This document shows positions 12,001 to 15,000 of a stretch of DNA of 17,568 bases, one piece after another. The stretch lies in IMG/VR virus record IMGVR_UViG_2698536618_000023; one strand, 5' to 3'. How positions within the stretch are numbered: the stretch's first letter is position 1; each line of letters starts with the position of its first letter. Position numbers: made by a program. The stretch comes from a virus (Duplodnaviria > Heunggongvirae > Uroviricota > Caudoviricetes).

Positions 12001-15000
12001 ATATTCAGAACAACAAAGGATTCAGTCATTGACGCATATTGCATCATCACCCGATGCAGCAATCAGCCAGCTACCTGCCTTACCTGTAAGCTGCTTAATC
12101 AGGGCGAGCAATGACTCAATCTCACCCTCAGTCATTTCACCTGTGTTACCCATCATCAGAGAACAAATAAGTTCTGCCTGCATTGCGCTTTTTGCTGCTT
12201 CATCAACAGTCATATCGGAAAAATCACACATGAATTACTCCTCATCCTGAATACATGTCACTGCGTGGATAATTACGCCGGATAAACCGGCTTTAGCTGA
12301 TTTGTTAATTACTGTGCTGATTGCAGCCTGGACGTTTTCGGCCTTCACGTTCTGCGTGATGCCAACGGTATAGCCGCGCTTGTTAACAGCACGGGAAAAG
12401 ACGCGGAAGGTTTTAAGCATGAGTCACCTCCTGACGGATACGGGCGACAAAAATCAGATGTGCGTGCGGATACAGCCATGTGAAAGGCTCCCAATTTAAT
12501 GTTAAGGAGTCTCGCTACTACGCTGCTAAACATGGTGGCGAGACGTAACAGGGTTAGCAGACTGGCAAATTGGGAAACCAGCGAGCGCAAAGGCTCCCCC
12601 GTTACGCCCCGCCATAATGCGGGTATGGGTAGGTTTACGGACACAAAAAAACCGCTTATCGGATATGGGCGGCTGTCCGCCAATTTATTCAGGCTGCTAA
12701 ACCCGGTCGCCATGTGGGCGACTCCGGCATCATACAGCCCGAAAGAAGAGGCGATCAACATGTTTTTATCCATGTGATGCCTCCTGACGGATACGGGCGG
12801 CGAATACAGCAACGCAACCTGACGGGCAACGGTTACGCGCTTCGCGTTCCGTCCAGGCGGTTACGTGGATGATTTGGGATTCTGACGCGCCAAAGATGAT
12901 AAAGCGCCAGATAAAGGCAGTCTGAGAATGTACGAGGGTAGGGGTAGTAGCCATGTTGGCAGCCTCCTTACAGTGATGAATAACGTCACCGCAGGAGTTC
13001 CTACGCTCACAATGGGCGGTGACACTGGCGGGGGTAGGAATACCGGACTGTAAGGACTCCGGCCTACCTTTCGGTAGCCCCGCCAGCATCACCATTGTTT
13101 GCTGGTGGCGCTGTGCAAAATGCAACTCGTGAAATGACTGGATGGTGCACGAGTACGCACAATACACAACGCCATTGATATGGCGTAAAGCGCTGGCAGA
13201 AAAAAAGACGCTTCTGGCGTCATTTATCGCCTTACAGTTAAACGGGTTCCTACGCCCGATCCCCGTTTTATAAGGGATAGCTTCAGTATATGCCGCTTTT
13301 TTGCTTAAGTGGTCGGATGTGTTGCGAGAAAAGTTTGTGCGAAAAATACCTGCGTTTTCTTTGAAAGCACATAATAACATCACGTTATTTATGTTTATGC
13401 AGTGTGTCGCAAAGCAACCTGAATCATCACGCAAATTACAACCATAAAAAATACCTGCGCTGTGATATGAGGTACTACAGCGCACCGCTTTACGGGTACA
13501 GACAATGACAAATGAAGAACTACAGGAAATCGCATTATCCATACTTGAGCGACAGCGCGAAAAAGCACAACGGCAAAGGAGGTTGTTACTTAATCCACTG
13601 CCACTCACCAGGCCAACACGATTTGCCCTTGAGGCTTTTGTCGAGAAATACCCACGGCGGTTAAAAGCCACTAAAAACCGACCGCCTGGCTGATAGCCTT
13701 GTCCACCAGCTACACTCATGGCATAGTTGGTGATGCGCTTGATTTCCTTTATCTCCACTGGCGACCCTTTCGTGGTCGCCTTTGTTTTGCCTGCCATTCC
13801 TGCATCATGCGGATATTCACGCCGTACAGGGCCACCAGCGCGATAATTTGATAAAGCCTCCTTCTGATAATGCTTAACGTGTTTCATGCGCTCAGCGGCG
13901 AAATGGCTCACGATATGGCGCATGTAATCAGCATGGTTGATGCTCACCTGTGCGAACTTATCCGCAGTATCGATGTACAGGGCGGCAGCGTTGCGGATGT
14001 CAGGCATGTTCACGTTCTCCCAGGCGACGTGCCAGCCAGAATCAAACTGTTCAATATTTACACTTTGGCTCCCCCGTTTCTGGGAATCAAAGTACAAATT
14101 TTCTACAGCCTCAAAATCCACACCTTTTTTAAATCCGTATTCCTCAATACGCCCTTTAATCCAGGTGGTGAAATCACGGCCTACACCGAGCGCTTTATGC
14201 AGTGCGCGTGCGCTGACAACGCCCGTTTCATATCTGCCAATAATGCCAGGTGATACCGGAATAATTGCGGCGAAATCATAATTACGCATGATTCACCCCC
14301 AGAGACGGCGCTGACGTCATCAGGCTGGCGAACGTCTCCATGCGGCGAGCAACTTCCCGCACCGCTTCGGTCGGTGTCATGCCGTTCTGTATCGCCTCGT
14401 TAAATGCTGCCTGCTCGATTTTCTGCATGACTATCAGTAAGCCTAACTGTTGCTCTCCCGCGCTCTGACGCTCGCCTACAGCCAGCCCAGCGAAGCGATT
14501 TTCAGTGCGGGCAAGGTTGATGTAATGGTGACGTTCTGCGCCCAGTGCTTTAAGCCCGTCACGGCTTTCGTGATAGCCTGGCAGATATTCGCGACGGACT
14601 GGTTCAGCGGCGCGATGCTTCGCGAATGCCTTCGTAACATCCAGCTTGAACTGGTTGATACGTTCTGCGTCACGCCCACGGATAACGCGTAACAGATAGT
14701 CAAGCTGTAGCTCATTCAGCAAATAACTAATTTCAGGACGACCGCGCTTGCGGCCAGATTTTCCCGATTTCAAATAGGTTAATTCCTTGACTGACTGGCG
14801 AGGCAGTGAGCCAAGCTCGCGCAATCTGGATTGATGAGATTTAATCGTCGCAATGATACTTTCGTGTTGTATTCCTGCTCGCTCAGAAATAACGCGGGAA
14901 TCAATACGCGACTCTGCTTTGTGGCGAATCAATATATCGTTCTGGCTGATTTCAGGCTGAATGAAGCCCTGCCCCTGTACGGGCATATTCGGACGTTTCA

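Follow-up and report, generated by a model that had tools for sequence, protein, structure and literature searches.

A 507-codon stop-free frame in an Escherichia coli phage-satellite island: a truncated antA joined to a likely counterpart of the P4 eta/kil read-through frame

Phages P1 and P7 carry at immI the order c4 RNA, icd, ant (RF01695, RF03163). In phage P4, nonsense codons in eta lead to termination of the transcripts from the upstream late promoter PLL, and read-through returns when these codons are suppressed; Eta has Kil as its C-terminal part (Forti et al. 1999, PMID 10464191, as summarised in PMC10111431). In Gifsy-1 an open reading frame (ORF), orf45, lies over a C4-like RNA; its nucleotides are conserved and its amino acids are not, and coupling to the antirepressor gene depends on its being translated (PMC4825925). 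In Gram-negative phage-inducible chromosomal islands (PICIs), C4 and isrK Rfam matches have been described inside genes of the Bro network, and the analogy with P4 eta has been drawn (PMC10111431). Here, we analyze a 507-codon ATG ORF on the minus strand (reading 14289→12766) of a stretch of 17,568 nucleotides (nt) of tailed-phage DNA, IMG/VR record IMGVR_UViG_2698536618_000023, which as a whole we call the window. The window contains the early, leftward (minus-strand) operon of an E. coli phage-satellite island of the P4/PICI type. The frame is a composite of an AntA fragment (AntA') and a pre-existing ORF of 413 codons. By analogy with P4 we favor, with a probability of roughly 0.6, the reading that it joins a deletion-truncated antA to the counterpart of P4 eta/kil, and that translation of the frame would shield the transcript from RNA-mediated and Rho-dependent termination.

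Such a locus might work as follows. In the quiescent state the internal promoter would yield the isrK-like leader and then, by read-through and processing, the C4 RNA. By pairing with the leader target and also over the Shine-Dalgarno sequence in front of the Icd-like gene, the C4 loop would block Icd translation, while the untranslated C-rich RNA would be terminated and the replication genes would stay off. On transcription from upstream (the alpA side), ribosomes would cross the genes linked by ATGnnTAA overlaps, the long frame, the hairpins, the C4 gene and the targets. This translation would stop C4 pairing, hairpin formation and Rho loading, and the transcript would escape immunity.

The closest described system is P4 with its eta/kil genes and CI RNA immunity (PMID 10464191, PMID 7883698). 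Like there, an ORF runs here from upstream of an internal promoter through the leader and the CI/C4 gene into a nested homologue of a toxic gene of about 62-65 residues, the RNA loop is complementary to one upstream and one downstream site, and the next gene overlaps the stop by 8 nt. An AlpA/Vis homologue lies upstream and a primase downstream, and Phage_ASH homology is common to both. The P4 sequence X51522 reproduces an Eta of 197-199 residues, containing the isrK-like leader and CI, and a Kil of 65 residues. The C-terminal part of the window ORF matches the eta region in tblastn (X51522 8195-8683, 34% identity, E 1e-9), and the Kil N-terminus MATTLTPSH of P4 compares with MATTPTLVH in the Icd-like gene of the window. 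There are distinct differences as well. The frame has 199 codons in P4 versus 413-690 here, and a dependence on Rho and translation would hold here by analogy with P4. A Rha remnant, one or more opposite-strand cassettes, an extra terminator-like hairpin, the AntA fusion and two tandem heteroimmune modules are found here in addition.

The other systems share parts of this layout. The immI region of P1/P7 also has a C4 RNA, whose a1b1 targets lie upstream and whose a2b2 targets lie at the icd ribosome-binding site, and an Icd-like gene is regulated first; however, the corresponding frame of the P1-like phage D6 has a stop, and in the window the antirepressor fragment lies upstream rather than downstream, in a satellite island and not in a plasmid prophage. 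The Gifsy-1 order IsrK, orf45, anrP (PMC4825925) likewise has an isrK-type leader with a terminator followed by a processed C4-like RNA overlapped by an ORF. In contrast to the window, orf45 is short and separately initiated, the small RNA activates translation, and no long upstream frame was described. The Gram-negative PICIs with Bro-zone genes (PMC10111431) are the same kind of island (int, alpA, Bro-type genes, primase), but their ORFs were seen as domain-swapping proteins, and no loss of amino-acid constraint, opposite-strand cassettes or avoidance of antisense stops was reported. The principle of P4 eta/kil (1999) and the PICI 'Bro' genes with embedded CI/seqA homologues (2023) are already known. 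New, as far as the searched literature shows, are a frame of 400-690 codons free of amino-acid constraint, its upkeep across opposite-strand cassettes with measurable stop avoidance, tandem modules of different specificity and a deletion-derived AntA fusion.

The 507-codon frame has no stop, versus 20 and 41 in the other two frames of the same strand, and 2000 shuffles of the region gave a mean of 24.5 stops and not a single stop-free case. This agrees with an earlier note on this DNA, made from the sequence alone, which had held the stop-free length to be unlikely by chance. The AntA N-terminus, which the note had found credible, is matched by the Pfam AntA model (PF08346) at residues 25-68, though with profile positions 1-39 of 68 only, so that the domain is incomplete. 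The motif RA-x-x-PVRREY that the note had seen in both this ORF and the Rha-like protein was recovered by BLASTP (38% over 39 residues, E 7e-6), with differing codons for P, V, R and R. Counting also bears out the change in composition near residue 215: Cys and Ser make up 0% and 5% of residues 1-214, and 6.9% and 12.1% of residues 215-445. Without meeting a stop the frame crosses two terminator-like hairpins (13483-13446 and 13221-13200), where the note had named one terminator, and, as had been noticed, a cloverleaf RNA, which is the C4 RNA, and the separately initiated Icd-like ORF. After AntA' the order is a Rha-domain remnant, the antisense of a 62-residue plus-strand gene, an ultraconserved stretch of 213 nt, an isrK/seqA-like leader, the C4 RNA and the nested Icd/Kil-like gene. 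The cloverleaf was also considered as a tRNA and rejected, as ARAGORN finds none and Rfam calls C4.

The origin of the AntA part can be traced. L numbers stand for the comparison loci. Aligning AntA homologues, as the note had proposed, gave an AntA of 249-282 residues with its own stop in the sister islands L006, L017, L019 and L026, where the Pfam domain is complete (positions 1-68 of 68). Residues 1-86 of AntA' are 95% identical to the N-terminus of these intact proteins. In the DNA alignment the window lacks 505 base pairs (bp) that are found in L006 and L017 between two copies of the 8-bp sequence CTGGCTGG, and one copy is left at the deletion junction (14039-14032). The distal 60-70% of antA, with the C-terminal ~200 residues and the stop, was lost, and because 505 equals 3n+1 the AntA residues 1-86 were shifted into the frame of the next ORF. 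In undeleted islands this next ORF starts at the codon equivalent to Met95, with a GGGAGA Shine-Dalgarno sequence and a 14-nt overlap with the AntA stop. The same start is present in the window (Met95, ATG at 14007, GGGAGA), and most homologues start there. Loss of the native stop codon, one of the explanations put forward before, thus holds for the AntA part (the first 94 codons), for which undeleted relatives keep the AntA stop, but not for the rest of the frame. Several complete genomes carry this fused allele too.

The earlier note had spoken of roughly 200 extra codons, but the codons downstream of AntA, about 413, are not extra. They form a conserved long ORF that hundreds of E. coli islands carry with a length of 380-690 codons and that every intact related island examined has. 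The protein search gave 408 relatives, most of them of 380-413 residues, aligning from Met95 to the end with 69-96% identity, and others of 500-684 residues. Across the loci found by tblastn in metagenomes and three loci found by protein look-up the long frame comprises 385-692 codons with no stop, versus 16-36 stops in every other frame, and it ends in an Icd-like module except in L008, L015 and L018. In L015 the frame ends in a different downstream sequence and is without the Ash and Icd parts, while L018 has a frameshift in section A (residues 95-198) and its other 458 codons are open to the Icd stop. Homologues vary in length through the insertion or exchange of entire modules. Where antA is undeleted, the long ORF shares 8-14 nt with AntA or Rha, or comes directly after AlpA. 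Section A resembles the neighboring Rha and has no match in Pfam or PHROGs; in L025 a full Rha-like N-terminus is present on the same ORF. A scan of GTDB species-representative genomes for relatives of residues 95-507 found none, and within the collections scanned the family seems limited to diversity at the level of E. coli.

An Rfam scan at permissive threshold and inspection of the sequence for RNA elements identified two tandem minus-strand immunity modules, both with the isrK-like and C4 elements inside an open frame. C4 #1 and C4 #2 reach 70.3 and 74.1 bits (RF01695; gathering threshold 45) over model positions 1-87 of 87. The isrK-like element of module 1 has a score of 50.0 bits (RF01394; threshold 50), with an additional c4-a1b1 match of 22 bits, and that of module 2 scores 37.6 bits; both carry a terminator hairpin and a U-run. 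The leader terminator of module 1 is GACGCCAGAAGCGUC followed by U7 (13221-13200). A further hairpin upstream, at 13483-13446, reads GCGCUGU-N13-ACAGCGC and then U6, with a folding energy of -16.5 kcal/mol. Its TGT-N13-ACA part (13483-13457) was also considered as a possible Ogr/Delta-type activator site. The loop of C4 #1, UCCUUACAGU, shows an exact 9-nt complementarity to the leader site ACUGUAAGG (13238-13230) and an exact 10-nt complementarity to ACUGUAAGGA (12974-12965), which lies over the AAGGAGG Shine-Dalgarno sequence of the Icd-like gene. A similarity of 26 nt between this Shine-Dalgarno region and 13855-13880 was too weak to interpret. The nested gene has the arrangement AAGGAGG-N8-ATG with the ATG at 12954, is in the frame of the long ORF and matches the NCBIfam Icd-like model with 53.9 bits (cut-off 25). 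It is Icd/Kil-like by family model, with inhibition of cell division as its predicted activity, and it is a coding sequence (CDS) of its own in the annotation of L001. Around its start (12871-13000) C amounts to 32-35% and G to 14-19%, with a C/G ratio of up to 2.45. The Pfam family Phage_ASH matches residues 334-455 (13290-12925; E 3.1e-19), and this match is the translation of the leader and the C4 gene.

The second module is of P4 size. Its ORF begins with the ATG at 12773, which overlaps the stop of the first ORF (ATGGATAA), and it has a promoter (TTGATC-N18-TATGAT, 12758-12729), an isrK-like element (12722-12645) and C4 #2 (12619-12531). The loop of C4 #2, UCCCAAUUU, has a 9-nt match to AAAUUGGGA (12497-12489) in the Shine-Dalgarno region of icd #2. 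Since the loop and target sequences differ between the C4 RNAs, the two modules have different specificities. The icd #2 gene (region 12440-12500, ATG 12479) has a 104-bp deletion between 8-bp repeats CCGCACGC compared with L017, L006 and L001; it is frameshifted, runs out of frame into the next gene and stops at 12345. This is the second short-repeat deletion in the island, and both strike potentially toxic or regulatory genes.

Openness in the frame of the regulated gene is a recurrent feature of the RNA region. The isrK-like and C4 element has no stop in the long frame versus 2 and 6 in the other frames, and the same region is open in the frame of the regulated gene in P4, mEp460, both modules of the window, both modules of L006, L011 and L017. 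The other frames over these RNA regions have 1-6 stops, with the exception of frame 3 in module 1 of L006, which is stop-free within a span of 92 codons. In phage mEp460 (L022) a CDS of 383 residues (1653-2804) is annotated as 'regulatory protein Rha'; its first half holds an isrK-like RNA (67 bits) and a C4 RNA (83.6 bits), and the true Rha domain begins after an internal AGGAGG-ATG downstream of C4. The layout of this CDS implies that the same read-through arrangement, annotated as one protein, exists in lambdoid phages.

The frame could instead encode a genuine multidomain protein of the 'Bro network' (AntA-N, Rha-like, Ash, Icd-like) that is functional along its length, with the RNA genes merely overlapping. 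Pfam and NCBIfam models do match the frame, PGAP (the NCBI Prokaryotic Genome Annotation Pipeline) names homologues of 380-680 residues 'ash family' or 'Icd-like', Phage_ASH is taken as a Bro-network domain in PMC10111431, and Ash-like sequence occurs in lambdoid 'Rha' proteins. We regard this as quite improbable, however, as the AntA domain breaks off at position 39 of its 68-position profile, the mEp460 'Rha' CDS has the same RNAs upstream of its real Rha domain and the range of 380-690 codons arises from unrelated module insertions. Moreover, the amino acids of the Cys/Ser-rich part show no sign of selection. The ratio of nonsynonymous to synonymous differences per site (pN/pS), calculated pairwise by segment after Nei and Gojobori, is 0.7-0.9 over residues 334-445 (isrK-like element, C4 and spacer, the Ash region), with substitutions spread evenly over codon positions and a nucleotide divergence between alleles of 21-70%. 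The Icd part has a pN/pS of about 0.6-0.7. AlphaFold2 modeling of residues 95-507 (16 homologues) gave a predicted local distance difference test score (pLDDT) of 27, every residue being below 50. Over the RNA region the protein is free of constraint, and a real Cys-rich extension is not supported. A conserved protein of about 500 residues under purifying selection, which the earlier note had named as the outcome contrary to its own view, is seen in so far as the long frame is retained among homologues, but the protein is not under purifying selection. Its codon-substitution analysis along the frame, now run, gave a clear third-position excess at residues 199-262 and none over the RNA region. 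This sole part with codon periodicity favors the opposite strand, both by pN/pS and by the conservative nature of the replacements.

Residues 199-262 are antisense to a plus-strand ATG ORF of 62 codons at 13505-13693 (MTNEELQEIALSILERQREK...FALEAFVEKYPRRLKATKNRPPG). The wobble positions of the two frames coincide, so third-position periodicity cannot separate the strands, and we used pN/pS, BLOSUM scores, structure prediction and a decayed island instead. Homologues that are longer carry an additional small opposite-strand ORF with each extra module; eight types of such cassettes, of 59-103 residues, lie in tandem inside long ORFs. It might be argued that the long minus-strand frame is the sole coding sequence in 13505-13693 and that the small ORFs are its shadows, since all of them are in the one antisense frame in which shadows of a long ORF are expected, they have no match in Pfam or PHROGs (the 62-residue ORF and its cassette relatives alike) and no strong Shine-Dalgarno sequence, and for the second cassette (c2) pN/pS is alike in both frames and alone not discriminating. 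For the 62-residue ORF (c1), though, pN/pS is 0.18-0.45 versus 0.45-0.77 for the long frame and lower in every pair. Replacements are fewer and more conservative on the plus strand, with a mean BLOSUM62 score of -0.27 versus -0.67 in c1 and +0.25 versus -0.60 in c2. The 62-residue ORF has an ordinary composition and is predicted by AlphaFold2 as two helices with a pLDDT of 78.8, versus 27 for the long frame. Most cassette ORFs end in FALExF..YPRRLKATKNRPPG, and the C-terminal motif FALExF..RRLK..RPPG, the ATG and the stop are kept among cassettes of 22-60% identity. In L004, a decayed copy of a selC island, stops interrupt the long frame but none of the small ORFs. The shadow explanation is accordingly very unlikely in our view, and the opposite-strand small ORFs are probably real genes. 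PGAP annotates the 62-residue ORF in L004 and L020, a protein-database search with it gave 10 matches, all of them E. coli hypothetical proteins, and a conserved dyad of the type GCGCTGT-N13-ACAGCGC precedes each cassette. The cassettes may be regulatory or anti-helper factors. Together with the RNA genes and the C4 complementarity, the lower pN/pS on the plus strand upholds the last explanation of the earlier note, constraint from overlapping RNA structures and opposite-strand elements.

Such overlaps might leave an open frame with no selection for it. The frame would then be a passive by-product, untranslated beyond the real genes, made up of a plus-strand shadow, stop-poor RNA genes and a pseudogenising deletion, with the Icd-like gene and the plus-strand ORF as the only genes. 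We resampled synonymous codons given the cassette proteins, for eight different cassettes. An antisense frame with coinciding wobble positions is indeed often open (P 0.09-0.66 per cassette), the G+C-rich C4 region is stop-poor in any frame, antA' and ash are marked as pseudogenes by PGAP in L001 and L021, and both the decayed L004, with a broken frame, and O157/O111, with a split one, lack continuity. Against this stands the joint probability that all eight cassettes stay open, 10^-4.2 to 10^-5.4. An antisense stop needs a codon ending in T (or C) before Tyr, or ending in T before His or Gln; the codon before His, Gln or Tyr ends in T in 0 of 55 cases in the eight cassettes, versus 22% elsewhere. 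The six distinct spacers between cassettes, of 3, 39, 42, 96, 198 and 435 nt, are all multiples of 3. Furthermore, the 385-692 codons of the loci have no stop despite a divergence of 33-68% between alleles in the RNA region and differing inserted modules, the frame has its own Shine-Dalgarno sequence and ATG and stop/start overlaps with its neighbors, and P4 provides an experimental precedent. Even the ultraconserved stretch of 71 codons, with 41% G+C, is open in the long frame. A passive by-product therefore seems unlikely to us. Antisense stops are actively avoided and the frame is kept open by selection.

Selection for openness means that translation of the frame matters, since only translation reads a frame. 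Selection of an unbroken frame, rather than of a protein, also accounts for the odd composition and the variable length, and explains why an opposite-strand gene and the AntA fusion are tolerated. We tentatively extend the eta-like reading, at somewhat less than even odds, to a P4-type frame stretched to 400-690 codons and kept open across exchangeable opposite-strand small genes, in which one strand carries real genes and the other is selected only for the lack of stop codons.

Several observations weigh against the reading of the frame as an eta/kil counterpart. The homologue set was partly found via predicted proteins, which biases it toward open frames. Section A has a pN/pS of 0.55-0.75, with few substitutions, and the N-terminal part of the ORF may have some protein function. 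The promoter of module 1 has a good -10 hexamer, TATACT (13290-13285), 7 nt upstream of the 5' end of the isrK-like element, but a poor -35; the position of the hexamer matches that of -10 hexamers upstream of the isrK-like elements in P4, mEp460, D6 and module 2. In D6 there is one stop in the corresponding frame inside the element. An antA deletion lands in frame in one of three cases by chance. Finally, the T-tract of the leader terminator (equivalent to 13206-13200 of the window) is T9 rather than T7 in the O157:H7 and O111:H8 alleles (L019, L008), which splits the frame into two stop-free frames that overlap, one of 344 codons and one of 135. The first of these runs past the Icd start, and in L008 its end is outside the Icd module. 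These alleles show that an unbroken run to the Icd stop is not obligatory, and transcriptional or ribosomal slippage could occur at the T9 homopolymer.

For annotation, hundreds of ORFs of 380-690 residues are named 'ash family' or 'Icd-like', and viewing them as read-through frames corrects this; what Pfam Phage_ASH models is for the most part translated RNA-gene sequence. The P4 result from a single system, that translation of a frame and not its product defeats immunity-specific termination, would then apply to E. coli islands as a large class, many members of which are found in Shiga toxin-producing E. coli (STEC). The signature of an open frame without amino-acid constraint and with avoidance of antisense stops is searchable elsewhere.

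The 213-nt stretch at 13291-13503 (residues 263-333) deserves separate mention. It is at most 1.4% divergent while its flanks differ by 15-47%, it is present with at least 95% identity in 104 complete E. coli genomes, and its conservation is at the nucleotide level. A 13-nt direct repeat, AAAAATACCTGCG, lies at 13342-13354 and 13447-13459, 105 nt apart, and both the repeat and the hairpin with U6 are inside the stretch. It is probably a regulatory or recombination joint. The features of the locus are collected in Table 1.

Table 1. Features of the 507-codon frame, the immunity modules and the surrounding island, with the basis of assignment.
Feature	Position	Strand	Basis
507-codon ORF: AntA' plus likely eta-like read-through frame ending as Icd/Kil-like gene	12766..14289	-	
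AntA N-terminal fragment, residues 1-86	14032..14289	-	Pfam AntA; 505-bp gap versus L006/L017
Section A, residues 95-198: start of the conserved long ORF, 3' half of Rha-family domain (remnant)	13696..14007	-	
62-residue small ORF, probable gene, antisense to residues 199-262	13505..13693	+	pN/pS, replacements, AlphaFold2, L004, PGAP
Ultraconserved 213-nt stretch, residues 263-333	13291..13503	.	
Terminator-like hairpin, codons ~269-282	13446..13483	-	sequence reading; fold -16.5 kcal/mol
Predicted -10 hexamer TATACT, internal immunity promoter of module 1	13285..13290	-	position
isrK/seqA-like leader RNA with intrinsic terminator	13201..13278	-	Rfam, terminator scan, complementarity
C4/CI-type antisense RNA gene #1	13012..13099	-	Rfam RF01695
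Downstream C4 target ACUGUAAGGA	12965..12974	-	exact 10-nt complementarity to C4 #1 loop
Nested Icd/Kil-like gene, Met446-Gly507, 62 residues	12766..12954	-	NCBIfam; aligns with P4 Kil
C-rich, G-poor stretch, candidate Rho-loading site	12871..13000	-	composition
Second, P4-sized module	12345..12773	-	Rfam, terminator scan, complementarity
Small-ORF cassettes	window 13505-13693 (+); L017 2818-3933; L026 1818-2855; L011 2815-3369; L024 1812-2663; L004 4208-4918		
Tyrosine integrase	16315-17568	-	
AlpA	15067-15270	-	
Rha	14282-15001	-	
D5-type primase	9786-11609	-	

On the minus strand the gene order is int, alpA, rha, antA', immunity region, small genes, D5-type primase, SSB, ProQ/FinO, PerC and Q antiterminator. 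A megablast search of the region against phage genomes gave no match. The closest complete genome, STEC2018-553, has the same element with 98% identity between yicC and dinD, where PGAP annotates antA and ash as pseudogenes (both 'missing C-terminus') and a separate Icd-like CDS. The Rha stop is overlapped by the ATG of AntA' (ATGCGTAA, 14289-14282). Overlaps of 8 nt of the form ATGnnTAA join consecutive genes of the operon also at 12766-12773 (ATGGATAA) and at about 12413-12420 (ATGCTTAA), and occur at junctions in L024 and L026. These overlaps suggest that translation is coupled without a break from rha as far as the genes preceding the primase. Beyond the Q-antiterminator end the minus strand carries a second integrase-family ORF of 543 residues (1613-3244) and a sulphur-transport family ORF of 412 residues (4838-6076).

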